Shown in pieces: positions 13,030 to 38,559 of a DNA stretch of 64,000 nt (position 1 is its first letter; the number at the start of each line of letters is the position of its first letter). The DNA lies in the NCBI RefSeq assembly GCF_056746865.1, contig NZ_CM163382.1. One strand, given 5' to 3'. Made by a program: the position numbers and the translations under genes. The notes under the pieces are model-generated. The model saw only the letters and a list, made by a program, of their open reading frames with translations, had not been told where the DNA came from and made no database searches.

Positions 13030-13049
13030 TGGGTTTGAAAATAGGAGCT

Positions 13050-14176: not shown

Positions 14177-14272
14177 ACTAAGCATACATAACTGTTTTTA
14201 AACAAATTTATTCCGCATCAACAATCTACCAACTAAATTAAAACATTTCCTTATTTTTAAAGAACAGATAAC
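14177..14272 (-). promoter_or_regulatory. AT-rich CRISPR leader between cas2 and the first repeat
   Basis: 96 bp of AT-rich non-coding sequence directly abutting the best-conserved repeat. Same orientation as the cas genes. Confidence 0.6.
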
Positions 14273-15482
<1,210 letters not shown>

Positions 15483-15486
<4 letters not shown>

Positions 15487-16806: not shown

Positions 16807-16969
16807 ACAAACATTTCTCAACGTCTACTGAAGTCCATCAAATCCACGAATATCAAGCCTTTCAGCCATTTTCATAGCTTATTAACGTCTACTCACAACT
16901 ACCAGAATCTACACACAGAAGTGTATAGTAATGCGTATAGGACAAAATTTATTTTTTGGAGCTATACAC

Positions 16970-18184
16970 ATGCTGCTTTCAGACCTTGCTATCAGGCGCG
17001 CGAAGCCGAAAGAAAAGGCTTATACACTCAATGACGGTAACGGGCTTTCGTTACTCATTGAGCCGAACGGCTCGAAAGGGTGGCGACTACGTTACAGATT
17101 TGCAGGAAAGCCCAAAATGTTGTCGTTGGGCGTGTACCCTGATGTGTCTCTGTCTGATGCCAGAGCGGCAAGGGATGAGGCTAAAAGGCTTCTTGCTGGT
17201 GGTATAAATCCAAGTGAGGCCAGAAAAGCTCAAAAGCGAGAACAGGCGAGCAAATTTGGCAATACTTTTGAGGGTATCGCTCGCGAATGGTATGAAAAGC
17301 GGATCGACAGGTGGTCATCGTCATACGCCGAGGAAATGATCGAGACGTTTGAAAAAGACGTTTTTCCGTACATTGGCGGCAGGCCGATCGCAGAAATTAA
17401 GCCAATGGAGTTGCTTGCGGTTCTCTCCCGTCTTAATGACCGTGGGGCGACCGAAAAATTGCGTAAGGTTCGCCAGCGATGCGGCGAGGTGTTCCGGTAC
17501 GCAATCATCACCGGACGCGCTGAATATAACCCCGCACCAGATCTGGCAAGCGCATTTGCTCCACACAAAAAAGAGCATTATGCCTATTTGAAGGCCGACG
17601 AACTGCCGGAATTTTTCCGCGTTCTTAATACGTACACCGGAAGCCAGATCGTCAAGCTGGGTATGCGATTATTGATTCTGACAGGGCTCCGGCCAGGGGA
17701 ATTACGACAGGCAGAATGGCAGGAGATCGATTTTGATAATCGTTTGTGGGAAGTGCCTAAAGAACGAATGAAGATGCGCCGTCCTCATTGTGTGCCGCTT
17801 TCAGAACAGGCGATCGCTATTCTGGAACAGTTAAAACACATGACGGGGCAGTATCAGTTTATTTTCCCTGGTCGAATCCAGCACAGTAAGCCGATGAGTG
17901 AAATGGCGATGAACGTGCTTATTCGTCGTATTGGCTATTCTGGGCGCGTTACTGGTCATGGGTTCCGGCACACGATGAGCACGATTTTACATGAGCAGGG
18001 CTATAACACCGCGTGGATAGAAACGCAGCTTGCACACGTTGATAAGAACTCAATTCGTGGCACGTACAATCATGCGCAATATCTGGACGGGCGGCGCGAG
18101 ATGCTCCAGTGGTACGCCGACTATATGGACTCACTGGAACAGGGCGGCAACGTGGTGCATGGCAAGTTCGGAAAATGTGGATGA
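16970..18184 (+). CDS. int: P4-type tyrosine recombinase / integrase
   Basis: 404 aa from MLLSDLAIRRAKPKEKAYTLNDGNGLSLLIEPNGSKGWRLRYRF (typical P4-integrase N-terminus). Catalytic region HGFRHT...RGTYNH. GGAG RBS upstream. Confidence 0.92.
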   Translation: MLLSDLAIRRAKPKEKAYTLNDGNGLSLLIEPNGSKGWRLRYRFAGKPKMLSLGVYPDVSLSDARAARDEAKRLLAGGINPSEARKAQKREQASKFGNTFEGIAREWYEKRIDRWSSSYAEEMIETFEKDVFPYIGGRPIAEIKPMELLAVLSRLNDRGATEKLRKVRQRCGEVFRYAIITGRAEYNPAPDLASAFAPHKKEHYAYLKADELPEFFRVLNTYTGSQIVKLGMRLLILTGLRPGELRQAEWQEIDFDNRLWEVPKERMKMRRPHCVPLSEQAIAILEQLKHMTGQYQFIFPGRIQHSKPMSEMAMNVLIRRIGYSGRVTGHGFRHTMSTILHEQGYNTAWIETQLAHVDKNSIRGTYNHAQYLDGRREMLQWYADYMDSLEQGGNVVHGKFGKCG

Positions 18185-22266: not shown

Positions 22267-22569
22267 ATGAAGAAGATTAAATTTACTGGCTTAAATGCCA
22301 GCGGACAGACTCACCCGAAAATCAGGATCGGGGATATTTTCCGGGATAAATATGGTGACAGCGTGGTTATTAATTCCGTGTATGAACGGCACATTACATA
22401 CCGCCGCGCAGGGTACGACTATGACTGTGTGATGCCCGTTCATCAGTTCCGGCGTGATTTTTCACTGGTATGTGCAGCACCACGCAGTAAGCCCACCAGT
22501 AAAGAGAAAGCACGGGCAAATATTCAGGTAATAAAGAACATGATTAACGCATTCAGGGGCAAGAAATGA
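22267..22569 (+). CDS. Hypothetical protein (100 aa), possibly DUF4222-like
   Basis: ORF tightly packed between neighbours. Its 3' end overlaps the primase start (ATGA). Confidence 0.5.
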   Translation: MKKIKFTGLNASGQTHPKIRIGDIFRDKYGDSVVINSVYERHITYRRAGYDYDCVMPVHQFRRDFSLVCAAPRSKPTSKEKARANIQVIKNMINAFRGKK

Positions 22570-24692
22570 AACGCGCACCGAATTTAAAGCACCAGCCGAA
22601 AGACAAAATGACGGAGGTGATTATCTTTGCGGGTAGTGATGCCTGGGCACATGCGAAAGAGTGGAGCGAATGGGCCGGAAAGCATATTGCGGCAGATGAT
22701 ACACATCCAGTTATTCTTGGACCGGAACAACTGGCGAGTCTGGCAGACACGCAAATCATCGACAAAGGGCGCTATTACGTGCGCGTTTATCGTGCTGGTG
22801 AAATATCAGAGCAGCACCTTACACAGATAGCGACACTGCTTGCAGTGGCGGGTGTGAAGGAGGCGCGTTGCTACCGCAGCTTTGTTGATCAGCAGCCGGA
22901 GGACTGGACACCGCGCATGGCTGGACTGAAGGATGATGCGGAACGCGGTAACAGTCTGGTGATCAACCTTCCGGCGAAGACAAATTTCACCGGAAATTAT
23001 GATGACGAATTAAAGCCTCGTGTTGAAAGTCGCGTCGATGGTGTTTTCTGGGTAACGCCCAAAGTGGACAAGCAGTCAGGCGAAATTATCCGGCCTGAGA
23101 CGTGGTTATGTTCTCCGCTTGAACTACTGGGAACAGGAACAATCGGCAAAGAGCATTACCGCGTGATGCGCTGGAAAAAACCAGCAAACCATGAGGTCAT
23201 TACAATGGCGGTCCCGTGCGGAGGCATTGGTGACCGTGACGGCTGGCGGTTGCTGAAAGACCACGGCCTTAACGTGACGACCAACGGCAAATACAGGGCT
23301 ATCTTGGCTGACTGGATGCAGTTAAGCGGAAACCATGAGGAATGGCAGTTAAGCACAACAACGGGGTGGCATTTTGGTGCGTACATCATGCCGGATGGTT
23401 CGATCATCGGTGAATCAGAGAAACCCATCCTGTTTACCGGAAAAACTGCCGCTGTTAATGGCTATTCCGTGGCGGGAACAGCGGAGGGCTGGCGCGATAC
23501 CGTGGCACGGCTGGCTGGTGGTAATCCGTCCATGATGCTGGGTGTGGCGGTATCGCTATCTGCACCATTAATCGGGCTGGTGGGTGCTGACGGCTTCGGG
23601 GTTCATCTTTTTGAGCAATCATCAGCAGGTAAAACCACCACACAGAACATTGCATCAAGTTTATGGGGAGAGCCGGACGCGCAACGGCTGACCTGGTACG
23701 GAACGGCGTTAGGTATCGCCAACGAGGCCGAAGCACATAATGACGGGCTGTTACCCCTGGATGAAATAGGCCAGGCCGGAAACGCACGGGAGGTGTCCAC
23801 GTCAGCCTATACGCTGTTTAACGGTTCCGGGAAATTACAGGGGGCGAAGGACGGCGGCAACAGGGAGATAAAACACTGGCGTACGGTGGCAATCAGCACC
23901 GGAGAAATGGACGTTGAAACATTCCTCAAAACGGAAGGGATAAAAATTAAAGCGGGACAGCTTGTCCGTCTGCTTAACGTACCGATGGAAAAGGCCTCGC
24001 AGTTTCACGAATACAGCACCGGAAAGGCGCACGCAGACGCGTTAAAAGATGCCTGGACAGAAAATCACGGGGCGGCAGGTCGTGAGTGGGTTAAATGGCT
24101 GGCAGGCCACCAGCAGGAGGCAAAGGACGCGGTAAGGGCATGTCGCGAGCGGTGGCGCAACCTGATACCGGAGAGCTACGGCGAGCAGGTTCACCGTGTG
24201 GGGGAAAGATTCGCCGTACTGGAGGCCGCGCTTGTGCTTTCCGGTCATGTTACAGGCTGGGATGTTCAGGCGTGCCGTGATGCAGTTCAGCATAACTTTA
24301 ATGCCTGGGTGAAGGAATTCGGCACGGGCAACAGGGAATTTAAACAGATGGTTGAACAGGCTGAGGCGTTTTTGTCGTCGTTCGGGTTCAGTCGATACCT
24401 TCCCTATCCAAACAGCGACGAGCGTGATTTACCGATTAAAGACCTTGCCGGATACAGAAAGGGGAGTATCAGAAACGAAGATGACGAGTTCCGTTTTTAC
24501 ACGTTCCCGCATGTGTTTGAGGGTGAGATAGCACAGGGATTTAATCCGTCTCACTTTGCCCGCGCGTTGAGTGCAGCCGGAATGCTGGAAGCGGGAGGCG
24601 ACCGCCGTTACAAGAAAAAGGCGCTCGGCAGGATTGGCGGGAAGCAACATATTTTTTACGTGCTGATGTTCCAGCCTGAAGCAGAAGATTAA
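22566..24692 (+). CDS. Satellite/prophage replication protein: primase-helicase with P-loop (DUF927-type)
   Basis: 708 aa. Walker A FEQSSAGKTTTQ and Walker-B-like LLPLDEIGQ. The size and its position just before the iterons match P4-alpha / PICI Pri-Rep-like proteins. Confidence 0.8.
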   Translation: MKRAPNLKHQPKDKMTEVIIFAGSDAWAHAKEWSEWAGKHIAADDTHPVILGPEQLASLADTQIIDKGRYYVRVYRAGEISEQHLTQIATLLAVAGVKEARCYRSFVDQQPEDWTPRMAGLKDDAERGNSLVINLPAKTNFTGNYDDELKPRVESRVDGVFWVTPKVDKQSGEIIRPETWLCSPLELLGTGTIGKEHYRVMRWKKPANHEVITMAVPCGGIGDRDGWRLLKDHGLNVTTNGKYRAILADWMQLSGNHEEWQLSTTTGWHFGAYIMPDGSIIGESEKPILFTGKTAAVNGYSVAGTAEGWRDTVARLAGGNPSMMLGVAVSLSAPLIGLVGADGFGVHLFEQSSAGKTTTQNIASSLWGEPDAQRLTWYGTALGIANEAEAHNDGLLPLDEIGQAGNAREVSTSAYTLFNGSGKLQGAKDGGNREIKHWRTVAISTGEMDVETFLKTEGIKIKAGQLVRLLNVPMEKASQFHEYSTGKAHADALKDAWTENHGAAGREWVKWLAGHQQEAKDAVRACRERWRNLIPESYGEQVHRVGERFAVLEAALVLSGHVTGWDVQACRDAVQHNFNAWVKEFGTGNREFKQMVEQAEAFLSSFGFSRYLPYPNSDERDLPIKDLAGYRKGSIRNEDDEFRFYTFPHVFEGEIAQGFNPSHFARALSAAGMLEAGGDRRYKKKALGRIGGKQHIFYVLMFQPEAED

Positions 24693-24716
24693 CTTCCCTG
24701 TGTGAGGTAAAAAGTT

Positions 24717-24841
24717 GCGGGTTATGCGGGTTATCCTGTGCATAAGTTAATTAACTGAATGATTAAAAAGGAAATTAATAACCCGCACGTAACCCGCAAA
24801 ACGGCAGTTATAACCCGCAAATGTGCGATTGTAACCCGCAA
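24717..24841. repeat. Iteron cluster 1 (ori/crr-like): 2 tandem TGCGGGTTA, an AT-rich spacer, then 4 inverted TAACCCGCA spaced 11/21/21 bp
   Basis: TGCGGGTTA at 24717 and 24726. TAACCCGCA at 24780, 24791, 24812 and 24833. The AT-rich core is 24745-24779. The cluster starts 25 bp after the primase stop. Confidence 0.7.
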
Positions 24842-24902
24842 AATTTCACTGTAAGAGTGTAAACAAGCGTAACTATCACGTTAAAACCGGAGAACAAACA
24901 GC

Positions 24903-25328
24903 ATGACGGCGCAAATATCAGCTTACGGGCGGCTGGTGGCTGACCCGCAGTTAAAGACCACCAGCAAGGGCACACAAATGGCGATGGCGAGTATGGCGGT
25001 CCCCCTTCCATGCAATCAGACAGATGACGGAACGGCGACGATGTGGTTATCCGTCCTGGCGTTTGGCAGACAGGCTGACGCACTGGCAAAACACCACAAA
25101 GGCGAACTGGTGAGCGTGGCCGGTAACATGCAGGTGAGCTGGTGGACGGGCCAGAACGGCGAAACGAGGCAGGGATGGCAGGTTATCGCAGACAGCGTAA
25201 TCAGTGCGCGAACGGCGCGACCGGGCGGCAAAAAAGGCCAGCAGGGGCAGGCTACTGATGCACTGAACAGGGCAAAGCAACAGACAGGCCAGCACGATGA
25301 TCCGTACGGGGACGGGATACCGTTTTAA
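24903..25328 (+). CDS. ssb: Single-stranded DNA-binding protein (OB fold) with SSB-like acidic C-terminal tip
   Basis: 141 aa. YGRLVADPQLKTTSKGTQMA... is an OB-fold pattern. A G/Q-rich linker leads to the C-terminus DDPYGDGIPF (compare E. coli SSB, ...DDDIPF). Confidence 0.7.
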   Translation: MTAQISAYGRLVADPQLKTTSKGTQMAMASMAVPLPCNQTDDGTATMWLSVLAFGRQADALAKHHKGELVSVAGNMQVSWWTGQNGETRQGWQVIADSVISARTARPGGKKGQQGQATDALNRAKQQTGQHDDPYGDGIPF

Positions 25329-25411
25329 TTCACAACAGCGAACAGAGTAATTACCCAGTGCGCCGTAAAGCCCCGTCCTTCAGGTCGGGGATATAAGGCG
25401 CGGTTTTCCAC

Positions 25412-25828
25412 CTAACTAGGTGTTTGCTGTTGTTCAATGTATTGGCGGATGATGGATATTGGCGCACCTCCGCAGCTACTGGCAAAATAGCTGGGACTCC
25501 ATAAAACGCCTTTGTAGTAATACCTGACTGCAATATCTGGTCGATCTCGTCGCAATAATCTACTCGATACGCCCTTGAGACTGTTCACCAGGGTGGATAT
25601 CGCCAATTTGGGAGGATAGTTAATTAGCAGGTGAACGTGATCTCGTTCTCCATCCATTTCAACCAGTTCAGCTTCAAAATCAGCACATACACTTGAAAAG
25701 TAAGTGCGTAGTTTTTCTATTGCGTCATGGTCAAAAATCTGGCGTCGGTACTTGGTAACAAAGACCAGGTGAACGTGCATCAGGAAGACACAGTGCCTTC
25801 CACGTCGGATATCGGTTTCTTTTTTCAT
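25412..25828 (-). CDS. tnpA: IS200/IS605 Y1 (HUH) transposase TnpA
   Basis: 138 aa from MKKETDIRRGRHCVFLMHVHLVFVTKYRR, with HUH motif HVHLL and catalytic-Tyr region SPSYFASSCGG. The longer 178-aa track ORF was rejected. Confidence 0.9.
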   Translation of the reverse strand: MKKETDIRRGRHCVFLMHVHLVFVTKYRRQIFDHDAIEKLRTYFSSVCADFEAELVEMDGERDHVHLLINYPPKLAISTLVNSLKGVSSRLLRRDRPDIAVRYYYKGVLWSPSYFASSCGGAPISIIRQYIEQQQTPS

Positions 25829-25850
25829 AGGCCAAAGTATAATTTGGCAT

Positions 25851-27059
25851 ATGAAACGACTACAAGCTTTCAAATTCCAGTTAAGACCAAATGGAAAACA
25901 GGAGCGTGAAATGAGGCGCTTCGCGGGCGCATGTCGTTTCGTTTTCAATCGTGCTCTGGCGCTTCAGAATGAGAATCATGAGGCCGGGAACAAATATATT
26001 TCTTATGCAAAGATGACTTCCTGGCTGGTTGAATGGAAAAATGCTACTGAAACGCAATGGCTTAAAGATTCTCCCTCACAGCCATTGCAGCAGTCACTGA
26101 AAGACCTTGAGCGAGCCTACAAAAATTTCTTTCAGAAGCGTGCCGCTTTTCCCCGATTCAAAAAGCGGGGACAGCATGATGCATTCCGCTATCCGCAGGG
26201 TGTTAAGCTCGATCAGGAAAACAGCCGTATTTTTCTGCCGAAACTGGGCTGGATGCGCTACCGGAACAGCCGTCAGGTCACGGGTGTTGTGAAAAATGTC
26301 ACTGTCAGCCAGTCCTGCGGTAAGTGGTACATCAGTATTCAGACAGAAAGTGAAGTATCAACTCCGGTTCACCCTTCAGCATTAATGGTCGGGCTGGATG
26401 CTGGCGTGGCTAAACTCGCCACGCTGTCAGATGGCACGGTCTTTGAGCCTGTAAACAGTTTTCATAAAAACCAGAAGAAGCTGGCGAGACTTCAGCGCCA
26501 GTTAAGCCGCAAGGTTAAATTCAGCAACAACTGGCAGAAGCAGAAACGCAAAATACAGCGACTGCATTCCCGTATCGCAAATATCCGCAGGGACTACCTT
26601 CACAAAGTCACAACGACCATCAGCAAAAACCACGCAATGATAGTCATTGAGGATTTGAAGGTCAGCAACATGTCAAAGTCAGCCTCGGGTACGGTCAGCC
26701 AGCCGGGGCGCAATGTCCGGGCAAAATCAGGTTTAAACCGTTCGATACTGGATCAGGGCTGGTATGAAATGCGCCGTCAGCTTGAGTACAAGCAGCTCTG
26801 GTGTGGCGGTCAGGTGCTTGCTGTTCCGCCAGCGTACACAAGCCAGCGTTGCGCGTGCTGTGGTCATACAGCGAAAGAAAATCGCCTGTCACAAAGTCAA
26901 TTCAGATGCCAGGTATGTGGATATACAGCGAACGCCGATGTAAACGGCGCTCGTAACATTTTAGCGGCGGGGCACGCCGTTCTTGCCTGTGGAGGGATGG
27001 TGCAGTCAGGCCGCCCGTTGAAGCAGGAACCCACCGAAATGATTCAGGCGACAGCCTGA
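25851..27059 (+). CDS. tnpB: TnpB (OrfB_IS605) RuvC-like RNA-guided nuclease
   Basis: 402 aa. RuvC triad contexts GLDAGV, VIEDLK and ADVNGARNI, plus a zinc finger CACCGH...CQVCG. All appear intact. Confidence 0.9.
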
Positions 27060-27264
27060 ACGTAGCAGGAATCCACGTCCTTCAGGGCGTGGAGGATGTC
27101 AAATATCAATGCGACGACTGGAATGTTCCAGGAAGGCACAGAGGCCACCGAAGCAACCGGATAATTTAGAAGACCTGAAACGGTCGCTTAAACGCACTGA
27201 AAAAGAAATGGGGATAGATGGGATCGGGAAATCAGTATGGCGTAACTACCAGAAGTAAGCACAG

Positions 27265-27289
27265 AGCCGGAGCAATCCGGCTTTTTTTT
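27265..27289 (+). terminator. Rho-independent terminator
   Basis: AGCCGG-AGCAAT-CCGGCT hairpin followed by T8. Confidence 0.6.
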
Positions 27290-27389
27290 GGCTGAAATCA
27301 ATCAATCTGTTTTTGTGATAGAAATATATTTATCTACCACTTTTTTCGATCAATAATGTGCATAATTTAGTCATTAAGAGGAAATTGCT

Positions 27390-27596
27390 GTGAATTGTAT
27401 TAACGACCTGAACACAGGCGATGTCAGAGGTGGTTCCGTTCATCTGGATGCACAGACCGTGATGCGCCTTAAGCAGTACAGAATCGACCATGTGAACAAT
27501 CACCCTGATCAGCCATTACCAGGCGTGGCGCAGATTGTCAGACATGCCGTAAACGCCTGGCTTAATCAGAATGGTTTTGCATCGGGGGGTGAGTAA
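27390..27596 (+). CDS. Small RHH-like protein (68 aa, GTG start) preceding the giant-protein operon
   Basis: GAGGA RBS. SVHLDAQTVMRLKQYRIDH...GVAQIVRHAVNAWL fits a strand-helix-helix pattern. Confidence 0.45.
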   Translation: MNCINDLNTGDVRGGSVHLDAQTVMRLKQYRIDHVNNHPDQPLPGVAQIVRHAVNAWLNQNGFASGGE

Positions 27597-27692
27597 TGAA
27601 TCGCTGGTACAGCATCAAAGCAGAGGGACGCCAATGTTATCTAACTCAGGTTTTATGAATTCTGACTCCCGATTCAAAATAGGAGGTTACTA

Positions 27693-30224
27693 ATGCCAGT
27701 CGTACCAACAGTATCCGGACGTCAGGTTGAGAGCCGTGGAGTTCAGTCAGCAGGCTTGCAGACGTTTTCTCAGCCAGGTATTGGTGATGCTTTTGTTCGG
27801 GCAGGGGCAGAGGCAATTGATGTTTTTGGTCAGGCAAAACAGCGTGCCAATATTGCCTTGATTCAGGAGGCATCCCTTAAACTCAGTCAGATAGGCAGTG
27901 ATCTGCTGAATAATCCTGAAACAGGATTGCTTAACCTGAAAGGGAAAAATGCTATTGGAAAAGGCCATGAGTATACACAGCAGTTTGATGCTCAGATCGA
28001 ACAACTGGCTATGTCGCTGCCGGATGAACAGGCTCGTAATGCTTTCATGCAGCAGGCGCAGCAGCAGCGTATTCAGTTCGCTACGCAGGCCGGGAGGTAC
28101 GAGATAGGGCAAATAAATGCCTACGAAGAAGGCCAGTTTCAGGCGACACTGCTGAATAATGGTAAAAATGCCTCAGCATTATATGGCGACAACGCAGCAT
28201 ACATATTGGCTAATACGCAAACTTTCCAGCAAATTGAGGATTACGGTATTGCGCATGGCTGGAGCGACGAGCAAATCCAGGCCAAGAAAATCGAGTTTAA
28301 AGAAGCAACAGCAAAAGCAACTGCTCAAAATGCTATTGGAGCAAACTATCTTCAGGTAAGACAGCAAAATGGCGAGTTAAGCGATACTGCTGCTGGATCT
28401 CGCCGTGCTGTAGCAGATAGTGGCTCTTCCGATCGTACCCGCGGTATACGCAACAATAACCCCGGCAATCTTGAATACAGCAAAACTAATCCGTGGATTG
28501 GGCAGACTGGTGATGATGGTCGCTTTGCCAAATTCGAAACCCCTGAACACGGTATTCGCGCGCTTGGTCGCAATTTGCTGTCGTATCAGCGTCAGGGTTA
28601 TGACACCATCAGCGAAATAATTAATCGCTGGGCACCGGCCAGTGATGATAATAAAACTGATGCTTATATACGGGCAGTATGTGCTCAGCTCGGTGTAACT
28701 CCTGACCAGCCGCTTGACGCATCAAATCCTGACACACTGAAATCTCTGTGCAAAGCAATTATTCATCATGAGCAAGGCAGTCAGCCGTACAGTGATCAGC
28801 AATTGGCCGCTGGCGTTAGTGCCGCACTGGGGCTTTCTCAGCTACCGACAAAAAATAAACGTTATACCGGTGTAGCCTGGTTCGATGCTTTAAGTGAATC
28901 AGATCAGGCCAGCGTGTTGCGACAGACGGATGCATTAGCCAGACAGCAGCAGGCTGAATATAGAACGATGCTCGAAAGCCGGGTTCGCGATGCAACGGCT
29001 GCGTATATGCGTGGCGTTGAATTTCCTAACCCGCCTGGTGAGGGTGAGTTCATTGCTGCTTATGGTGTCAGAGAAGGAAACCTGCGATATACCGAGTTCA
29101 GAAATTTGCAGATCGCCGGACAGTATATAGGCTCTTTCCGCAACATGCCGACAAGCAGCATTACCGCATATGTTGAGCAATTACGCCCGGATACTGGTGA
29201 GACAGGGGAGGGGTATGCGTCTCGTGCGGAGTTATTCGACCGGGTATCGGCGGCAGCCACGAAGGTAATAACCCAGAGGCAGAATAATCCGTTTAGTGCA
29301 GCGGTGGAAATCGGAGCCTATAAGCCGATCACCAGCAACAACCCTGACGACATCACTGCCGAGGTGGCTAACCGTTTCTCGTCGCAGGAAAGCTTACGCG
29401 CGTTGGGAATTAATGCCCCACTCCTCAACAGTGAAGAGGCGGCTGCGCTGGCACAGCAGGTGCGCGGCACTCAGAACGTTGACCAGACAATTAAACTGTT
29501 GCAGAGCATGGGGGAGAAGCTGCCTGCGCCAGCAATACGGCAGGTGGCATCTGTAATTGCTCCGAACAGTGCGGCAACAGCCTATTCTGCGCTGCTGCTG
29601 GGCACGCCGGATAACCAGTACGACAACACCAGGCCGACGATCCCATATAGTCAGTTCATCGGGTATAAGCCGACGATGAACAAGTACGACGTTGCAAAGG
29701 TTATTCTTTCCGGCGACCAACTACTGAATCCGACGAAGGCCATGAAGAATGCGGGCATAACTCCGGTACAGTTGCCGAGCGAAGATAAGATGAAAGACGC
29801 TTTCGACGAACAGGTAGGTAATGCATTTGCCCGTAACCCGCAGTTACGCCAGATCAGTTATAGCCTTTTCAAAGCCGCTTACGCAGGAATAGCTTATCAA
29901 TCTGGTGATGCCTCTACGGTAAGAACCAGTATGCCTGATACAGACATTGTAGCTGATGCCGTGAAGTATGCTACTGGCGGTATATACAATGGTTTTAATG
30001 GCGGCGACGTTGTAATGCCTTTTGGCATGGATAAATCTACTTTCAAAGATCGCTATACCACATCTGCGAAACAAGCACTGAAAGATGCCGGACTTAACGT
30101 AAATGCAGTGTCAAATTTCACGCCAGTTAATATCGGCAATAACCGGTATCGGCTTGTAAATGGTAGCGGACGCTGGGCAACAGATCCCAGAACCAATAAA
30201 GCTATTGTCGTGAGGGTTGAATAA
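27693..30224 (+). CDS. Large protein (843 aa); candidate phage internal-virion/ejection-type protein with an RNNNPGN-motif central domain
   Basis: Strong AGGAGG RBS. N-terminus MPVVPTVSGRQVESRGVQSAGLQ. Q/A-rich helical regions. GIRNNNPGNLEY at nt 28449-28469. No nucleotide-binding motifs seen. The function call is tentative. Confidence 0.75.
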   Translation: MPVVPTVSGRQVESRGVQSAGLQTFSQPGIGDAFVRAGAEAIDVFGQAKQRANIALIQEASLKLSQIGSDLLNNPETGLLNLKGKNAIGKGHEYTQQFDAQIEQLAMSLPDEQARNAFMQQAQQQRIQFATQAGRYEIGQINAYEEGQFQATLLNNGKNASALYGDNAAYILANTQTFQQIEDYGIAHGWSDEQIQAKKIEFKEATAKATAQNAIGANYLQVRQQNGELSDTAAGSRRAVADSGSSDRTRGIRNNNPGNLEYSKTNPWIGQTGDDGRFAKFETPEHGIRALGRNLLSYQRQGYDTISEIINRWAPASDDNKTDAYIRAVCAQLGVTPDQPLDASNPDTLKSLCKAIIHHEQGSQPYSDQQLAAGVSAALGLSQLPTKNKRYTGVAWFDALSESDQASVLRQTDALARQQQAEYRTMLESRVRDATAAYMRGVEFPNPPGEGEFIAAYGVREGNLRYTEFRNLQIAGQYIGSFRNMPTSSITAYVEQLRPDTGETGEGYASRAELFDRVSAAATKVITQRQNNPFSAAVEIGAYKPITSNNPDDITAEVANRFSSQESLRALGINAPLLNSEEAAALAQQVRGTQNVDQTIKLLQSMGEKLPAPAIRQVASVIAPNSAATAYSALLLGTPDNQYDNTRPTIPYSQFIGYKPTMNKYDVAKVILSGDQLLNPTKAMKNAGITPVQLPSEDKMKDAFDEQVGNAFARNPQLRQISYSLFKAAYAGIAYQSGDASTVRTSMPDTDIVADAVKYATGGIYNGFNGGDVVMPFGMDKSTFKDRYTTSAKQALKDAGLNVNAVSNFTPVNIGNNRYRLVNGSGRWATDPRTNKAIVVRVE

Positions 30225-32284
30225 TGTCTGATGTTTTTTCTTTGGCTCCAGAAGGTCAGGCATGGATTGACGACAAAACAGTTGCCAACCCAGCAAGGCC
30301 AGAAGACTACGATCCGACTCCCTTCCAGGGTTCAGGTACTGCACTTTTGAGCGGCGTGGCGGAGGGGGCTCTCGGTCTCGCGCAGTCTGCCGTCGGATTC
30401 AGCAAGCGTCTGATTAGCGATCCGGCATTTACCGCAGACGTGGCACCGACAGTTAATATTTTTCGGGAGATGTTCCCTGATGCTGACAAAACACTGAATG
30501 ATACATACGACACGATCGGAAAACAGTTACAGGATGCCCGCAGCTATGTGAAGCCTGATGCAGGCAGCCAGGGAATGGCGGCTGAGGTATTAAATGAGCT
30601 TGGTAAATTTGTTCCTGCAATCGGAACAACTATGTTTGGTGGTCCGCTCATCGGCGCTGCTACAGCCTTCAGTTCTACGTATGAGCAGTCCTATCAGGAT
30701 TTTAAAGGGAAGGGAGTAGACGAGGCTACAGCGCGTAACCTGGCAACGCAGCAGAGCCTTTTCAATGCTGTGGGTATGGCCTTACCCGCTGCCGTCGGCA
30801 CCACACTGGCAACGCGCATTGCCTCAGGTGTGGCAATCAACACCGGATTCGGTGGACTGAACCGTTACTCAGTAGGCGCAACACTGGAGGAAAAAGGCTA
30901 CACGGAGATGGCAAAACAGTATCGGGTATTTGACGGTCAGGCGATGTTAGTCGATGCCGTTTTAGGCGGGGTCTTTGGTGGCGTTCATCACCTGACTACC
31001 CATAATAACCATGATGGTACAGAGTCGAACATTTCTGCAGAAGAAATAAAATCAACTTTTGGTGAACATTATCAGCAATCTCCTGATGGTAACATTGAGT
31101 CAATGGTTCGTGATTTATCTGATTCAGGAGTAATAGAACTTATTAATGAACCAGCAATAAAAAATAGTGATGGAGAAATACTTCTGAATAAAGGTCATGT
31201 GACAGTAGCTTCCGGAAAAGAACCAATAATAAGAATAAATATTAATGGATTAAAAGACCATGAAGAACTGTTAGAAACCCTTCATCACGAGGCGCTTCAT
31301 CTTGAGCAGCGCCATTACCCTGACTGGAAGGCCAGAAAGCTAGCTAATGCTGTACTTAAATCTGCAAACAAGCATTCTGACTATCCTGAATTTGCATATG
31401 GGATGTCACAATATTATGAATATAAGAAAAGGGGTGAGTACCCTGAAACATATCCTGAGTGGTTGTACGCTGAAGAAGTTGCCGCACATGCAGTAAATCC
31501 ATCTCTAAAGACAAGCGTTTCATCATGGGAAAAAATTATTTCAGGTTTTAAAGCCTATATATTCAGATACAGTGGTATTCAGGTTGGAACCGTTACACCT
31601 GAGCAGTTACGGTTACTCGTAAGTATGCGTCTTCGCAATATGAAACTGGAAGCCGCAGTAGAAAAAGTTTTTGGTATCCGGGCGAGGGAAAGAATAAAAC
31701 CAAGCGATATTGATGCAGCCCACATTTTGAATGAGGGGCTTCATTACGATATTGAATCGTCACCAGTGCTTCATACCAGCAATGAGAGCATCAACAGCCA
31801 TGTTGACGCCATGGATGAAGCATACAGGCAACTTAATGATGGTCAGCCTGTAAATGTTGGGGGGATGGCGCGAGGGCTTGATGGTCCATTGCGATCAGAT
31901 ATATCTGATACTTACCAAGAGCAATACCATGAAATACAAAAGGTTTTTGAAGAAAATGGTGTCAGATACGAAACATCATCAGAGCCAATTAGTGAATCGC
32001 CTGTCCCTCGTGCTGAAAGTGCTTTCTCATCGGCTGGTGAACACAGAGGGGACATCAGCGTTGATCCAGATACAGGGCAGGTTCTCTCATCCAACAGCTA
32101 TGACCTTATGGCTGCCAGGGACATGGCTGTTGCCAATCCTGAGCTGACTATAGCTCACCCGGAAACCGGAAACCCGACAAAACTTTCTGATCTCCTGGCT
32201 GAGTTGGATGAACAGATTAAGACAGTCCAGAACGAATCGAAGGTTTATTCTGTAGCAGCAGCGTGCTTCTTGAGGAACCCATAA
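30224..32284 (+). CDS. Large protein (686 aa) with Gly/Ala-rich hydrophobic segments and an internal HExxH (zincin-like) module
   Basis: TAATG overlap with the upstream gene. Hydrophobic G/A-rich stretches (GTTMFGGPLIGAATAF, AVGMALPAAVGTTLATRIASGVAINTGFGG). HHEALH at nt 31283-31300 within an AT-rich segment. Confidence 0.75.
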   Translation: MSDVFSLAPEGQAWIDDKTVANPARPEDYDPTPFQGSGTALLSGVAEGALGLAQSAVGFSKRLISDPAFTADVAPTVNIFREMFPDADKTLNDTYDTIGKQLQDARSYVKPDAGSQGMAAEVLNELGKFVPAIGTTMFGGPLIGAATAFSSTYEQSYQDFKGKGVDEATARNLATQQSLFNAVGMALPAAVGTTLATRIASGVAINTGFGGLNRYSVGATLEEKGYTEMAKQYRVFDGQAMLVDAVLGGVFGGVHHLTTHNNHDGTESNISAEEIKSTFGEHYQQSPDGNIESMVRDLSDSGVIELINEPAIKNSDGEILLNKGHVTVASGKEPIIRININGLKDHEELLETLHHEALHLEQRHYPDWKARKLANAVLKSANKHSDYPEFAYGMSQYYEYKKRGEYPETYPEWLYAEEVAAHAVNPSLKTSVSSWEKIISGFKAYIFRYSGIQVGTVTPEQLRLLVSMRLRNMKLEAAVEKVFGIRARERIKPSDIDAAHILNEGLHYDIESSPVLHTSNESINSHVDAMDEAYRQLNDGQPVNVGGMARGLDGPLRSDISDTYQEQYHEIQKVFEENGVRYETSSEPISESPVPRAESAFSSAGEHRGDISVDPDTGQVLSSNSYDLMAARDMAVANPELTIAHPETGNPTKLSDLLAELDEQIKTVQNESKVYSVAAACFLRNP

Positions 32285-35040
32285 TGAAACAGGCATGTGT
32301 GGAAGCTATTGCGCAGACACTTGGTCGCCAGCCAAAGGCTGATGAGCTGAAAAATATTGAAGATCGTATCAAAGAAGCTGTGCAGCATGTGCACAGAAAG
32401 AATGCCAAAGAAGGCAAAAGTGGTATTCCTGATGCTCAAACATACATGGATGCAGCAGAACTGGTACGCCAGCGTGTGGTTCATGATGTGTACAAGAAAA
32501 GACAGCGTGTTGCCCAGAATGCGATCGCCATCAGTAAAATTACTGACACTCTCGATGCTAACATCCCGCCTGATCAGCAGACACCTGTTAATTTGCAGCA
32601 GTTTATTTTTGCTGGCCGACGATCGAGAGACAAAGCTGATATCTCCGTTACTTCTGCTGAAGAACTTGCAATTGGGGCATATCAGGACTGGTCCCGTCAG
32701 CTCAGTGCTGAACTTCTAAAAGCAGGTGATGACGTCCGCAAATTCTTCGAGCAGAGCAGGGCGCTTGGAGAGCAGCGGTTTCGGAGTGTATTCGACAGGC
32801 AGGCGGCAAAGTCTGCACAACTCCAGATCCTGAAAGAAATATATGGCGAAGATACCGGGAATCCCCTGGCGAAGAAAATTGCACAGATTTGGAAGGATGT
32901 AACAGGCCGTGTTCGTCATGAGATGAACGACAATGGCTTTGACATAGGCCTGCGAGAAGACTGGCATACGCCATATGTGGATGATGCTGACCTTATTCGC
33001 AATGCCGGGCGCGAAGAATGGCTGGCATCGTTACCAGTGGCAGAGCAAGCTACAGCACGTCTTTCAGGTCGCCAGCCACCGATTGAGTTTGCCCGCCAGA
33101 AATGGGTTGATGACGCTTACAACACGCAGGATCGCAGCAATTACGTTAATCCTGACGGCAGCATTATGAATGACGTCGAGTACCGTCAGGCACTGGAAGC
33201 GATCTTTGAAACGAAGGCCACTGATGGGGCAAACAAAATTGAGCCTGGTACATTTATGGGAGCCGGAGGAATAAAGAGCCGTGGTTCTCAGCACAGGGTG
33301 ATGGCGTTCAAGGATGCGCAGTCACACTTCGCCTATATGGAACGATACACTCAGCAGCCGCTGGTGGGGGTGATGATGTCGCACCTGCAATCATCATCCA
33401 GGGATTTGGGCGTCGTTAAAGCCTTTGGTCCGGACGCCGAAAGAAACTTTTCCCTGGTACTGGATCGCATCTATAAGCGCGCAGTAACAGGCGGGAAACG
33501 CAAAAAAGAAATGGAGGATGAGGCCAAATTAGTTGCCCGTATGTTCAACTCAATGGCTGGCCTAAATGGTGTCGCTTCATCGAGTGTGTTCTCTTCAGCA
33601 GTTGGTGGTCTGCGTAACCTGATGACCAGCGCCATGCTTGGCACCAGCGTACTGACAGCAACCAGCGACCAGGCAATTATGCGGGCAAATGCGCAGGCGC
33701 TGGGCTTTACCCGTGGTGGAATGCGGCTTTCCGTTAACACTATCAAAAACCTGTTTAGTGGAGATGCCAAAAAGGCGAATGCTGAACTCGGTCTGCTGGT
33801 GGATTCACATGCTGCTGTGGTTTCGAAAATGGGCGGGTTTGACTTGTCTCGCGGCATAACTGGCTGGTTCGCAGAGAAGACACTGAAGTGGTCCGGGCTG
33901 ATCGCTATGGACCGCGCAAACAAAGCGTCGTTTGGTCTCCTGATGTACAAAAACATTGGCGAGCTGACCAGAAAATTTAAGACGCTGGACGATATGAAAG
34001 GAACCGATAAAACCATTCTGGCTAACAAGGGATGGAGCAATGAGGACTGGGCCATCATGGCAGCGGCAGAACTCAGGCCGATGACTACTGCCGGGCATAT
34101 GGGGATGACGCCAGACGCGATTTACGCTGTGCCCGATAACGTAATAGCCGACATTATGGCAGACCGTATTACCCGGATTCGTGCCGGGAGTGAAAAGGCA
34201 CTGGCAGCCCTTGGAGATCTCCCTCCAGAACGCCTGAAACGGATGAAAGAAGCATTCGACGCTGAGGCTGAGCAGACCATCACGCGCATGATTCGTAATG
34301 CACGCGCTGAAGCAGCCCAGAAATTGCTGGGAATTACGCACGGTGAGATGACCAATGCTGTGACCACCGCTACGGGTATTGATACATATGCCCGTGATGA
34401 TGCTGGCGAGTTAATGAAGAGCTTCATGCTCTTCAAAACAACCCCATTTGCTGGATTTCGGCAACTTGTTAACAGAACACGGGATTTGGACACCGTTCCG
34501 GCCATTAAATTTCTGGCCTCATATATCGGGGGAACAACTCTTGCTGGTATGTTTGCGATCCAGATGAACAGTTTGTTAAATGGTAATGATCCGCTGGATA
34601 TGACAAAACCAACCACATGGGTTCAGGCTTTACTGAAAGGTGGTTCGTTCGGTATCTACGGTGATTTTATTTTCCAGGACCATACGCAATATGGCTCCAG
34701 CATCGGTGCCACTATGGGTGGCCCTGTGTTGAGCTTTGCAGAGCAGTTAACAAAATTACTGATTACTAACCCACAGAAGGCTCTACAGGGTGAAGAAACA
34801 TCATTCGGTGCCGATGCACTGAAAACAGCCCGCATGATCACCCCATTCGCAAACCTGTGGTATGCGAAAGCGATAACCAATCACCTGATATTGCAACAAC
34901 TTCAGGAGATGGCAAACCCTGGTTACAATGATCGAGTAAGGGACCGCGCGCAACGGGAGTTCGACATAACGAGTTGGTGGGAACCGGGTGCTATTGCGCC
35001 ACGTAGAGCACCGGATTTTGGAAAGGCGGTGGGGAACTGA
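32284..35040 (+). CDS. Large protein (918 aa), unknown function; candidate ejection/structural-type protein
   Basis: ATG at 32284 in a TAATG overlap (preferred over the track start at 32263). Long uninterrupted frame with only antisense shadow ORFs opposite. C-terminal hydrophobic G-rich region (IGGTTLAGMFAIQMN...GGSFGIYGDFIF). Confidence 0.75.
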   Translation: MKQACVEAIAQTLGRQPKADELKNIEDRIKEAVQHVHRKNAKEGKSGIPDAQTYMDAAELVRQRVVHDVYKKRQRVAQNAIAISKITDTLDANIPPDQQTPVNLQQFIFAGRRSRDKADISVTSAEELAIGAYQDWSRQLSAELLKAGDDVRKFFEQSRALGEQRFRSVFDRQAAKSAQLQILKEIYGEDTGNPLAKKIAQIWKDVTGRVRHEMNDNGFDIGLREDWHTPYVDDADLIRNAGREEWLASLPVAEQATARLSGRQPPIEFARQKWVDDAYNTQDRSNYVNPDGSIMNDVEYRQALEAIFETKATDGANKIEPGTFMGAGGIKSRGSQHRVMAFKDAQSHFAYMERYTQQPLVGVMMSHLQSSSRDLGVVKAFGPDAERNFSLVLDRIYKRAVTGGKRKKEMEDEAKLVARMFNSMAGLNGVASSSVFSSAVGGLRNLMTSAMLGTSVLTATSDQAIMRANAQALGFTRGGMRLSVNTIKNLFSGDAKKANAELGLLVDSHAAVVSKMGGFDLSRGITGWFAEKTLKWSGLIAMDRANKASFGLLMYKNIGELTRKFKTLDDMKGTDKTILANKGWSNEDWAIMAAAELRPMTTAGHMGMTPDAIYAVPDNVIADIMADRITRIRAGSEKALAALGDLPPERLKRMKEAFDAEAEQTITRMIRNARAEAAQKLLGITHGEMTNAVTTATGIDTYARDDAGELMKSFMLFKTTPFAGFRQLVNRTRDLDTVPAIKFLASYIGGTTLAGMFAIQMNSLLNGNDPLDMTKPTTWVQALLKGGSFGIYGDFIFQDHTQYGSSIGATMGGPVLSFAEQLTKLLITNPQKALQGEETSFGADALKTARMITPFANLWYAKAITNHLILQQLQEMANPGYNDRVRDRAQREFDITSWWEPGAIAPRRAPDFGKAVGN

Positions 35041-35354
35041 TGACGAGAGATAAAATTGAATATATTGCTTCTCTTAAATATGAAGCTGAGAAATGGAGAA
35101 GGATTGGCGGGTGGGGAACATTAATATCACTCTCTGCTTTACTTATAGACTCCTGGTTCAGACATATTGATGCAGCATCATTACTTTTTGAATCAGCAGT
35201 ACTTGGTGGATTCATTTGCTGTTGGGGTGGTAATTATGATCGGGCGTCCAAACATAAGAGAGAACTTGACGCGATATGTTTTGCTTTATTCGGTAAGGAT
35301 TACGAAAGTTCTGACCTTGATATAATTGAATTCAACAAAACGGAACTATCGTGA
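35040..35354 (+). CDS. Small predicted two-TM membrane protein (104 aa), last gene of the operon
   Basis: TGATG overlap with the upstream gene. Hydrophobic segments WGTLISLSALLIDSWF and SAVLGGFICCWGG. AT-rich. Confidence 0.55.
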   Translation: MTRDKIEYIASLKYEAEKWRRIGGWGTLISLSALLIDSWFRHIDAASLLFESAVLGGFICCWGGNYDRASKHKRELDAICFALFGKDYESSDLDIIEFNKTELS

Positions 35355-35362
35355 CATGTCAC

Positions 35363-35387
35363 AGGCCGCTTTCGCGGCCTTGTTTTT
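35363..35387 (+). terminator. Rho-independent terminator of the giant-protein operon
   Basis: AGGCCGC-TTTC-GCGGCCT hairpin followed by TGTTTTT, 9 nt after the stop codon. Confidence 0.65.
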
Positions 35388-36058
35388 AACGAATGCCACC
35401 GCCGCCCGGGCGGGAATTCGCAGATAAAAAAGCACGCTGCACGGTTTTATTAATACTTATACCATTAGGATTGATCCTTCAATGGACAATCCTTCCATCG
35501 TGTGGCCAGCCATTCATATTCTTTGTCTTTTCTTCAGTATCGGCTTTGCATCTTCTACACCCTGAAAGATGTCGTTTTATGGTGTATCTGATGATTTATT
35601 CCCTAACAATAGATATTCGAAAAATTAATCAGTTAAAACAATTATTTGGATAATTTCAGGTAAAACTATCTTAATCTTCTGGTGGATCTCAATGCGTAGT
35701 GACGGTATCGGGATTAAGGGCGTGGATATTCGCGATATATGCCGCTACACCCCTCAACAGTAATAGATATGAGCTTTTCACGCTCTCCTTTCACTGCTGA
35801 GAACGGCAACAACGTGCCACAGGAACGCGCTGTAATCGATTCTGACGCACTTAATTGCGTTGGGTAATGGTTTTTGCCAGCCTGTGGGGGTAACTCTGTT
35901 TTATGAGGCTTTGGCTATAGTGCAAAAATACACTTTGTCTTGCCTCTCAATTTGATGAGACTGGAACGACAACAGGACAGACCACCAGCAACAGTTACCG
36001 TATTCAGCCGTTCTGTGGCACCAGTGGAACTATCAACCCCTGCTTTCAGCAATGTGTT

Positions 36059-36212
36059 TGCGGGTTATTTTGGGGCGTTTGCGGGTTATTTGGGATGTTT
36101 TGCGGGTTATGTGATGCTTGAATAATGAACAGTGTATTTTGCAACATATTGATACTAAAGAACAAAAAATAGTTAGCATACTAAGATAACCCGGTAACCC
36201 GCATAACCCGCA
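36059..36212. repeat. Iteron cluster 2: 3 TGCGGGTTA spaced 21/21 bp, an AT-rich spacer, then tandem inverted TAACCCGCA copies; a mirror image of cluster 1
   Basis: TGCGGGTTA at 36059, 36080 and 36101. TAACCCGG (degenerate) at 36187 and TAACCCGCA at 36195 and 36204. The AT-rich core is about 36121-36186. Confidence 0.65.
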
Positions 36213-36618
36213 CTGTTTTGTATATATATACGAAAAATTGCATTCAGGAGGGGGGGAGCGAAATCCCTACAATCCATTGCTTATGGGACCGCCCGCCTCG
36301 TCAAATTTTTACACCCGCGAAATAAAAAAATACTTCACGCTGGTGGGCATGATGCTGATATGGGAGGCTTCCATAACGCCACCATTCGGAACTATGCAAA
36401 TCTGCATAGAAAAGGGGATGCCTGATACAATACCCTCGCCCGATAAAATCACACCGATAAACTCATCTGCCACGAGTAGAAAGAGCGAACGAACCCGATA
36501 CGCAGTAATGCTTGTCGGGTACAGCTTTTTAAGGCGGCTGTAGATATCAGGCCATCCGTGATCATCCACCAGCGAGATAGCCGATAACGATGACGCATAA
36601 CCCTCAAGCGAGGGATAA

Positions 36619-36642
36619 ATGTGTATAGAAATGTGTATAGAA
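36619..36642. repeat. Tandem 12-bp repeat ATGTGTATAGAA x2; candidate integrase arm-type sites
   Basis: Exact tandem copies 62-85 bp left of the right core. GTGTATAG also occurs at 16921-16928, and inverted (CTATACAC) at 16962-16969, next to the int start at the other end. Confidence 0.35.
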
Positions 36643-36699
36643 TTGATTTTAGAACTCGCAGGATTCGCGCTATTACTGGCCTTGTGTGATGTTGTATTG

Positions 36700-36718
36700 T
36701 TCCCTTCGCCCGCTCCAA
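36700..36718 (+). other. Right island junction (attR-like): an 18-nt copy of a tRNA 3' end (TTCCCTTCGCCCGCTCCA) plus A; not a complete tRNA
   Basis: It matches the T-arm/acceptor/CCA end of E. coli tRNA-Gly(CCC) glyU as I remember it (…GGTTCGATTCCCTTCGCCCGCTCCA). Upstream sequence has no tRNA body. The 15-nt core is repeated at 16792-16806. Confidence 0.7.
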
Positions 36719-36949
36719 TTTATCTTCACCTCATCAACCTGCCATTTTTGTTGTATCTGATTTTCTATATTATCTTAATTCAATCGCTTCAGACTTTTCG
36801 CAATCGCCGTAATACTTCCCCATTTTTTTGTAAATAAAAGCGTTTACGCAATGCAATCCATTTGTAACAACCCAGGTAAAATACCTTATTTTCAAGTTGT
36901 TAAATAAGTGGTTATCTACGCTTTTAACAAACGATTGATGGAATCTTTT

Positions 36950-38559
36950 ATGAAAGGGAAATCTACATTAACTCTTCTGCTCGCTGGTATATTTTCATGC
37001 TGCACATGCCAGGCGACAGGGGCAGAAGTGACGAGTGAATCTGTATTTAACATTCTTAATTCCACGGGGGCAGCAACTGATAAAAGTTATTTATCGTTAA
37101 ATCCAGATAAGTATCCTAATTATCGTCTTCTGATTCACTCAGCCAAATTAAAAAATGAAATAAAGAGCCACTATACCAAAGACGAAATTCAAGGATTGTT
37201 AACATTAACAGAAAATACACGAAAGTTAACGTTGACGGAGAAACCATGGGGAACATTTATTCTTGCTTCTACTTTCGAAGATGACAAAACAGCGGCAGAA
37301 ACCCACTATGATGCTGTCTGGCTGAGGGATAGTTTATGGGGCTATATGGCATTAGTATCAGATCAGGAAAATAGTGTAGCCGCAAAAAAGGTTCTGCTCA
37401 CTCTGTGGGATTATATGTCTACGCCAGACCAGATTAAACGGATGCAGGACGTCATTAGCAACCCAAAACGACTGGATGGTATTCCTGGGCAAATGAATGC
37501 TGTGCATATCCGATTTGACAGCAACTCCCCCGTGATGGCAGATGTGCAGGAAGAAGGCAAGCCGCAGCTGTGGAACCATAAACAAAATGATGCGTTAGGT
37601 CTTTATCTTGATCTCCTTATACAAGCAATCGACACTGGTACTATTAACGCTGAAGATTGGCAAAAAGGTGACCGATTAAAATCGGTTGCGCTGCTGATTG
37701 CTTATCTGGATAAAGCCAATTTCTATGTTATGGAAGATTCCGGAGCGTGGGAAGAAGATGCCAGATTAAACACATCTTCCGTTGCACTGGTGACCTCTGG
37801 ACTGGAACGTTTGTCGAACTTACTCTCGAAGAAAGACTCTGTTTTTGTCTCTGATTTACTACGCGAAGCTAAAGCTAATGAACTGGATGAACCACTTTCA
37901 ACAACGAGGTTGAACCACCTCATAGATAAAGGTTATGAAAGAATAACGTTACAGCTTGATTTAGGGGGAGAATCCCCAGGTTATCTGGAAAAAGATAAAC
38001 ATTACAGAGAAGCCGATGCGGCTTTACTTAATGTTATTTATCCTGCAAATCTTTCAAAGATAAATACCAGAAGAAAAGAGCAAGTTCTAAAAATAGTTAA
38101 AAAACTAGCAGGTCCGTATGGTATAAAAAGATACGAGAAGGATAATTATCAGTCGGCAAATTTTGGTTCAATGATATTAAAACCGATACCGATCAAAATT
38201 CACATGCAAAAAGAGAAATGAGCTTCATTCCATCAACAGAAGCAGAATGGTTTTTTGACTCATGGTATGCAAAATCAGCAGCAATTGTTTATAAAGAATC
38301 AAGAAAAGAAGAGTATTTGAATGACTCAGTGCAATTTATGAATAGATCATTGGCCCAAATAACAGGCGAGAATATGATTGGTGCAAATGGCAGGAGCGTA
38401 CCTGAAATGGCACTTCCCGAAAGCTATAACTATATCCACAAGTCAGGAACTTTGCATGAAGCGCCAAGCCCTATCATTCCGCTAAACTGGTCGAAAGCCT
38501 CAATGACTCTTATGTTGAAAGAAATGTCCAATCTTATCAATGATGAGGGAATTAAATAG
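36950..38559 (+). pseudogene. ygeQ: GH15-like (glucoamylase/YgeQ-family) secreted glycoside hydrolase, split by a frameshift near 38158-38220
   Basis: Signal/lipobox-like N-terminus MKGKSTLTLLLAGIFSCC. GH15-like DAVWLRDSLWGYMAL. The second ORF (38218-38559) continues in the -1 frame, and that frame stays open back to about 38155 (GKFWFNDIKTDTDQNSHAKRE). The likely slip is in the AAATTTT run. Confidence 0.65.

Follow-up and report, generated by a model that had tools for sequence, protein, structure and literature searches.

A probable compound replication origin of two mirror-image iteron units, split across a single satellite island

Why would a mobile island keep two mirror-image clusters of the same short repeat, one directly after its replication gene and the other close to its far end? 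The question is raised by a 64,000-nucleotide stretch of contig NZ_CM163382.1 (assembly GCF_056746865.1; the whole stretch is called the window here), in which two clusters of the iteron TGCGGGTTA, here named C1 and C2, enclose the cargo of an island that encodes a DUF927 initiator-helicase. The original prediction, made from the letters of the sequence, offered two readings of the pair: a bipartite origin like the ori and crr of P4, or a C2 that is the origin of a second, largely deleted, related element in inverted orientation. Our analysis indicates that C1 and C2 probably belong to one element and one replicon, as the two units of a compound origin that is bound by one helicase and is split in the window. 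Phage-inducible chromosomal islands (PICIs) and their capsid-forming relatives (cf-PICIs) are satellites that serve as widespread gene-transfer vehicles in Enterobacterales, and their origins have been described as a single unit of iterons, AT-rich centre and iterons after rep. The features on which the argument rests are these.

22566–24692, plus strand: DUF927 initiator-helicase, the 'primase' of the original prediction (Pfam DUF927, E=1e-46; PHROG phrog_1139, E=4e-174)
24366–24689, plus strand: C-terminal ~108 residues of the helicase, the putative iteron-recognition domain, delimited by a drop in identity to the related locus L004 that accompanies an iteron switch
24716–24733, plus strand: C1, two abutting copies of TGCGGGTTA starting at 24716 and 24725 (direct reading and motif count)
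24734–24778, no strand: C1, AT-rich core of 45 bp, with the island's least stable 40-mer
24737, minus strand: C1, DnaA-box-like TTATGCACA inside the AT-rich core
24779–24840, minus strand: C1, four opposite-facing iterons starting at 24779, 24790, 24811 and 24832, spaced 11/21/21 bp
36059–36109, plus strand: C2, three copies of TGCGGGTTA starting at 36059, 36080 and 36101, spaced 21/21 bp
36110–36186, no strand: C2, AT-rich core of 77 bp
36142–36154, minus strand: C2, exact IHF consensus TATCAATATGTTG in the AT-rich core
36187–36194, minus strand: C2, degenerate iteron TAACCCGG
36187–36212, minus strand: C2, whole opposite-facing set, the degenerate copy followed by two abutting exact iterons starting at 36195 and 36204
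36216–36231, plus strand: conserved TA box TTTTGTATATATATAC, 3 bp outside the abutting iterons of C2

Both clusters are real. The 64-kb window holds 12 copies of TGCGGGTTA where 0.58 are expected, a number matched by none of 100 dinucleotide-preserving shuffles. Six copies lie in C1 (24716–24840) and five exact ones in C2 (36059–36212); a stray copy at 29834 on the minus strand, inside a cargo gene, is at chance level. Motif counts and BLASTN bore out the spacings and the mirror architecture of the original prediction: positions 24709–24733 of C1 aligned with the reverse complement of 36195–36219 in C2 at 92% over 26 nt, and 24786–24842 with that of 36057–36113 at 75% over 57 nt. Its placement of C1 directly after the 'primase' stop was right, apart from a start given one base too far downstream (24717); the first copy begins at 24716, 24 bp past the stop codon (24692). 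Its 'two to three' tandem inverted copies in C2 are the two exact ones plus the degenerate TAACCCGG. At least two opposite-facing iterons stand on each side of either AT-rich centre (2 + 4 in C1; 3 + 2, or 3, in C2), and the C2 box falls within the least stable 0.1% of the island's 20-mers.

This layout is that of a known kind of origin. The Rep proteins of Staphylococcus aureus pathogenicity islands (SaPIs) are self-loading initiator-helicases that bind iterons through a C-terminal winged-helix domain, and the SaPI origin lies directly 3′ of rep, with opposite-facing iterons on both sides of an AT-rich centre (PMC9371898). PICIs of E. coli have the same origin layout, and a plasmid maintenance assay was used for the rep-ori of EcCICFT073 (PMC6092414). 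Because its iterons flank an AT-rich centre in opposite orientations, C1 alone fits the published definition of a SaPI/PICI origin, and so does C2.

The helicase points to the same family. Its residues 214–603 matched PDB entry 8TCH_A, a 'Pathogenicity island protein', at E=2.2e-14 in a phmmer search of PDB, in which the SCCmec Cch helicase (5DGK) was found at E=9e-4; NCBIfam Cch1 matched at E=9.6e-10, below the family cut-off. By sequence homology the protein thus belongs to the SaPI Rep/Cch (DUF927) family. Pfam searches up to E<=5 detected neither a TOPRIM nor a primase domain in this 'primase', and its N-terminal ~170 residues (22566–23070) have no Pfam match. More distant E. coli relatives of the helicase are annotated 'TOPRIM and DUF927'. 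As in SaPIs and PICIs, the window therefore combines a Rep/Cch-type helicase, an origin immediately 3′ of its gene and opposite iterons around an AT-rich centre, and covariation (below) would place specificity in the C-terminal domain here as well. The window is unlike them in having two mirror-image units with a conserved TA box, 11 kb apart in this lineage.

To see how general the second unit is, we collected 100 loci encoding a related helicase (8 from complete E. coli genomes, 12 from other genera and 80 from IMG/VR; more than 10 genera). The iteron of each locus was derived de novo from the 200–260 bp past the stop codon, and loci were classed using iteron matches, box positions and base-by-base maps (including loci of the TTGTCCC/GGGATAA type). 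C1 lay directly 3′ of the helicase gene in all 100, at +23 to +35 in nearly all, and always consisted of two abutting iterons, an AT core and four inverted iterons at about 11/21/21. The position of C2 defined the following classes.

67 loci, adjacent: C2 directly after C1, with a linker of 17–169 bp
21 loci, split: C2 distal, 2.3–11.4 kb downstream in the same orientation, 0.3–0.5 kb from the right end of the island
11 loci, not judgeable: the contig, or the fetched flank (two near-identical copies of the window island), ends before any distal C2
1 locus (L098), C1 alone: 10 kb of downstream sequence

The comparison with related islands that the original prediction had proposed thus found both clusters, and the two-unit architecture, in 88 of the 89 relatives that could be judged. 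Since the linker of adjacent units can be as short as 17 and as long as 169 bp, the units are separable. Whatever the iteron sequence, C2 always ends in a conserved box (consensus GTTTTGYWTATATATAC) placed 3–4 bp outside its abutting iterons; the box stands beside C2 in every locus mapped base by base (17 shown) and in 49 of 100 loci by a strict pattern, regardless of iteron type. Complete E. coli genomes are divided between the two layouts, with the split junction (C1 followed by ssb) in 136 and the adjacent junction in 140. Intact-looking cf-PICIs have the split form too: the cf-PICI of O157:H7 is adjacent, and those of strains 042, O169:H41 and O177:H21 are split, with the capsid-terminase module between the units. 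The IHF consensus TATCAATATGTTG was present in 8 of 18 C2 units and 1 of 17 C1 units; its background frequency is 0.09 per kb. We also considered the DnaA box as a general feature of these origins and ruled it out, as TTATNCACA in the C1 core is confined to the TGCGGGTTA group.

The iteron itself differs between islands, with at least seven types (GCGGGTTA, TGGGTTA, TTGTCCCA/TTATCCCA, TTGCCTCA, GTGGTTCA, TTGGTTCA and CGGTTCA), and it always matches between the units of an island's working set. Between the helicase of L004 and that of the window, identity is 97.2% over residues 1–600 and drops to 37.4% from residue 601 onwards; both clusters of L004, C1 and the distal C2, use TTGTCCCA. The converse case is provided by helicases that are 66% identical over residues 1–600 and 62% at the C terminus and go with a near-identical iteron, GTGGGTTA. 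L005, a glyU island, has three clusters that all use TTGCCTCA: C1, a C2 next to it and, ~300 bp from attR, a second copy of C2, 180 bp long and 90.6% identical (17427–17732 and 23396–23506). The C2 copies form direct repeats that flank accessory genes. Twenty-five distinct C2 modules of the GCGGGTTA type show no change in the iterons, in an IHF-like motif or in the TA box, while their spacers vary, with ~15–20% divergence. From the L004 swap, its converse, L005 and the invariance of C2, we infer that the C-terminal ~100 residues of the helicase determine iteron specificity; by the same comparisons, C2 evolves together with C1 and the helicase.

Both clusters of the window lie in a single 19.9-kb, att-bounded island of the PICI/cf-PICI kind that adjoins the ETT2 secretion locus. 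Its ends are marked as follows.

16792–16798, no strand: left junction, CTTCGCC common to cas5e and the 3′ end of tRNA-Gly (from genome matches)
36700–36717, plus strand: attR core of 18 bp, identical to the 3′ end of tRNA-Gly (glyU)

C1 and C2 are assigned to one element because both lie inside this one attL/attR pair, C2 ~490 bp inside attR. Sequence common to 4,317 of 5,426 complete E. coli genomes begins at 36700 and runs into the ETT2 type III secretion locus; a C2 that is part of the ETT2 flank is ruled out, since the common sequence begins only there. Strains fS10a and GF43 have the same island inserted at tRNA-Gly (glyU).

These observations suggest a model in which each cluster would be a complete origin unit of the SaPI/PICI type, with opposite iteron sets around an AT-rich, easily melted core, and iteron recognition would fall to the last ~100 residues of the helicase. 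The family would normally have two mirror-image units side by side after the helicase gene, the second ending in a TATATATATA box; in the lineage of the window the second unit would have come to lie at the right end of the island, ~490 bp from attR, with SSB and the virion-gene cargo in between. The excised circle would then present two cognate helicase-loading sites, 11.2 and 8.6 kb apart. Following the SaPI model, hexamers of the helicase may form on the iteron sets of each unit and melt either the AT core or the TA box. The distal unit could itself initiate replication, or it could be a cis element, effective at any position, that reaches the first unit by protein–protein looping. That it is a required cis element of this kind, with C1 and C2 pairing across 2–11 kb of cargo or two origins firing on the circle, is conceivable, if on the unlikely side.

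Several other accounts of C2 have to be set against the compound origin. One alternative sees in C2 the origin of another, related element, inverted and largely deleted, and draws on the architecture of C2, which is the reverse complement of C1. We consider it hardly credible: the orientation of C2 to the helicase gene is identical in all 67 adjacent and 21 split relatives, both clusters lie within one attL/attR pair, and C2 has no gene remnants beside it (tblastn of the helicase, SSB and four upstream ORFs against 35000–37500 gave nothing at E<0.6). C2 might instead be a regulatory rather than an initiation site, either controlling copy number by titration or handcuffing with C1 or gating transcription past the TA box, into the orf-ssb operon in adjacent forms and, once a split form has been excised as a circle, into attP and int. 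Extra iteron arrays of iteron plasmids commonly serve copy-number control; the box lies ~10–45 bp upstream of the next gene's start codon in adjacent forms, and C2 lies 0.3–0.5 kb from attR in all split forms, much as P4 crr lies ~200 bp from attP. Regulation as the role of C2 is nevertheless quite improbable, given that C2 has the full two-sided architecture of iterons and AT core rather than a simple array, that a consensus scan found no sigma-70 promoter at the box, and that the flank past C2 differs between adjacent and split forms, which therefore offer no single downstream target.

The distal C2 might also be a functionless passenger in a mosaic right-end module (C2, the box and ~450 bp to attR) that is shuffled by recombination, C1 being sufficient as an origin by the published definition. 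Two islands bring this out, and they weigh against the compound origin as well. L020 (BH100) and L021 (STEC367) carry a C2 of the GCGGGTTA type at their right end, at 15009–15155 in each, although the iterons of their own origins are of other types. In L020 a different primase goes with TGTCTAC repeats; L021 combines a DUF927 helicase and TGTCCC iterons, and has a C1 and C2 of its own, side by side, with a TA box. The orphan modules are 93–95% identical to a cognate terminal C2, and no cognate helicase was evident elsewhere in the two genomes, each of which has one C2-type match. Islands that occupy different att sites have homologous right-end flanks (88–92% for the window and L004; likewise the window and L021). 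Terminal C2 modules would therefore have been exchanged by recombination, and can persist unused. L098 has C1 alone despite 10 kb of downstream sequence, and the split loci cover only two iteron families, themselves mutually related, so that few independent events lie behind a C2 that is 'always cognate'. For the C-terminal fold of the helicase, AlphaFold gave a pLDDT (predicted local distance difference test) of 52 from the single sequence and 44 from a 27-sequence alignment, Pfam a sub-threshold match to HTH_56, the helix-turn-helix of Cch (E=0.022; seen in 7 of 27 homologues), and a profile search of PDB no match. Binding, melting and replication at the two units are, in addition, predicted functions.

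We nonetheless regard a passenger C2 as unlikely. Wherever a distal C2 is the sole C2, it is intact and cognate (21 split loci, or 23 with the two other copies of the window island), even after the switch to TTGTCCCA. Non-cognate modules are limited to L020 and L021, which keep a full origin of their own beside the primase or helicase gene, in L021 a clear cognate pair of C1 and C2 with the TA box. The invariance of iterons, IHF-like motif and box while the spacers diverge by ~15–20% also speaks against a passenger. The pattern of sole distal C2 units that are always cognate thus favours function, as judged from sequence conservation, and with it the compound origin. Its two units seem not to rearrange the cargo between them, as the original prediction had supposed inverted clusters might: ssb lies on the same strand at +211 to +237 in 23 of 23 split loci (21 plus the two other copies of the window island), and the longest stretch shared by C1 and C2 is 26 nt. 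We also weighed C2 as a cos or pac site and judged this unlikely, because the HK97-type layout puts cos upstream of terS (a placement that we inferred) and because, in the adjacent-type cf-PICI of O157:H7, which is of the experimentally studied EcCIEDL933 type, 6 kb separate C2 from terS/terL.

The bipartite reading of the original prediction therefore stands in outline, on the single island, the 88 of 89 relatives and the covariation of iteron and helicase C terminus. The helicase is no homologue of P4 alpha, with which it gave no significant alignment (BLASTP, E=0.12). In P4 as in the window, a short iteron recurs at two cis loci that lie apart, one of them directly after the replication gene. 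In the P4 record (NC_001609), crr lies directly after alpha, ~200 bp from attP, with abutting and inverted type-1 iterons, and ori is 4.7 kb away. P4 ori and crr are said to communicate by looping, as Ziegelin and colleagues reportedly described in 1993. The replication protein of P4 is multifunctional, with a C-terminal origin-binding domain (PMC4234260). Unlike the DUF927/Cch-like protein of the window, alpha combines a TOPRIM primase with an SF3 helicase, and P4 crr consists of two direct 120-bp repeats with ori in a different layout, whereas the units described here are mirror images and adjacent in most relatives. By this analogy the resemblance to P4 is functional only and does not extend to homology.

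A closer likeness is found in E. coli cf-PICIs of the EcCIEDL933 type, which share with the window an Icd-like gene, DUF4222, the DUF927 helicase, the origin, SSB and PerC; the iteron of the cf-PICIs of O157:H7 and 042 is TGCGGGTTA, identical to that of the window. They differ in the placing of the units, which are adjacent in O157:H7 and stand on either side of the capsid-terminase module in 042, O169 and O177; in that position the window has homologues of epsilon15 gp15–gp17. The accessible cf-PICI paper makes no mention of the origin. The origin is of the known SaPI/PICI iteron kind, and its two-unit, sometimes split, arrangement is not described in the accessible literature.

For the DUF927-helicase lineage, a two-unit mirror-image origin with a conserved TA box would thus take the place of the single unit. 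About half of the TGCGGGTTA-group members in E. coli carry the second unit at the island's far end and the entire accessory module between the units. The clusters provide a simple sequence signature by which these islands can be delimited, along with their cargo slot, which extends from C1 to C2. The set of loci also pairs helicase C-terminal domains with iterons in a natural table that lends itself to the study of origin specificity, and offers a testable parallel, in an unrelated helicase family, to the long-known and mechanistically unclear ori/crr pair of P4. If the distal unit is a required, position-independent cis element, placing C2 0.3–0.5 kb from attR would couple replication to the edge of the island; C2 could mark the last replicated element or block forks entering the chromosome, and orphan C2 modules could titrate a rival satellite's helicase or turn it to their own use.

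The remaining features of the island are these.

16970–18184, plus strand: tyrosine integrase of the P4 type with an arm-binding domain (Pfam Arm-DNA-bind_3, Phage_int_M and Phage_integrase)
24903–25328, plus strand: SSB gene, the first between the two units (Pfam SSB)
25851–27059, plus strand: IS605-family tnpB, 402 amino acids
27693–35040, plus strand: cargo of three large open reading frames (ORFs), homologues of Salmonella phage epsilon15 gp15, gp16 and gp17 (virion internal proteins)
36618–36641, plus strand: two direct repeats of AATGTGTATAGA, ~60 bp from the attR core

The SSB gene, the insertion element and the three large ORFs all lie between the clusters, as the original prediction had stated. 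The islands of fS10a and GF43 encode an integrase, annotated at the position equivalent to that of the window, an AlpA-type regulator, AntA, BRO-N, an Icd-like protein, DUF4222, the DUF927 protein, SSB, ProQ/FinO, PerC and the three large ORFs. The order of int, alpA-type regulator, rep, ori and accessory genes, all rightward, is that of Gram-negative PICIs (PMC6092414; PMC9371898); the AlpA-family gene is annotated in GF43, and gene order is rightward and unidirectional. The tnpB insertion is absent from fS10a and GF43, which have in its place a ProQ/FinO–PerC region that is partly replaced in the window.

The cargo was first examined as a candidate defence system, which was rejected with no PADLOC, Pfam or NCBIfam match; PHROGs and tblastn then identified it as an epsilon15 gp15–gp17 module. 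The PHROG matches have E=4e-289 for the gp15-like, 2e-136 for the gp16-like and 2.5e-295 for the gp17-like ORF, and the 925-amino-acid ORF is 89% identical to epsilon15 gp17 by tblastn. In epsilon15, gp15 is a lytic transglycosylase and gp15–gp17 are contiguous. Capsid, portal, protease and terminase had no match among the scanned island ORFs (a cos site was not searched for). In place of the capsid and packaging genes of PICIs and cf-PICIs, the island thus holds the epsilon15-type virion genes, in the slot that a capsid-terminase module occupies in its cf-PICI relatives. A satellite with an ejection-protein module of the helper type may merit separate study.

The left end of the island is probably rearranged. 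It is joined to the interior of cas5e, in a type I-E CRISPR–Cas operon (context 13000–16810), and not to tRNA-Gly. The window matches the type I-E cas locus up to 16798 and the glyU–island junction of GF43 from 16792, and island DNA (the attL side, then int) runs from 16799 on. The directions of the genes point to an inverted segment of some 110 kb that extends from cas5e to glyU, and such an inversion would break the cas operon in two. ARAGORN found no tRNA in the window because of this rearrangement, the cas5e–island junction was present in 0 of 5,426 complete E. coli genomes, and the second junction of the inversion falls outside the window. Repeats similar to AATGTGTATAGA, GTGTATAG/GCGTATAG, stand just upstream of int (16918–16945); to judge by their sequence and position, both sets are probably arm-type sites of the integrase.

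Around C2, small ORFs had no Pfam matches. Two terminator-like hairpins on the plus strand, at 35363–35380 and 35841–35864 between the last cargo ORFs and C2, were found by consensus match, which suggests that C2 may be insulated from cargo transcription. An Rfam scan of 24500–37000 by E-value gave only sub-threshold matches, all within the insertion element; those to HgcC, RAGATH-18 and sot0042 overlap the 3′ end of tnpB (26932–27115) and may reflect a TnpB guide RNA. The ~150 nt after C2 (36213–36362) matched no ORF family and no Rfam family. They are kept between split-type islands at different att sites, with 88% identity to L004 and conservation in L021 and 042 too, and contain a terminator-like hairpin at 36335–36352 on the minus strand.

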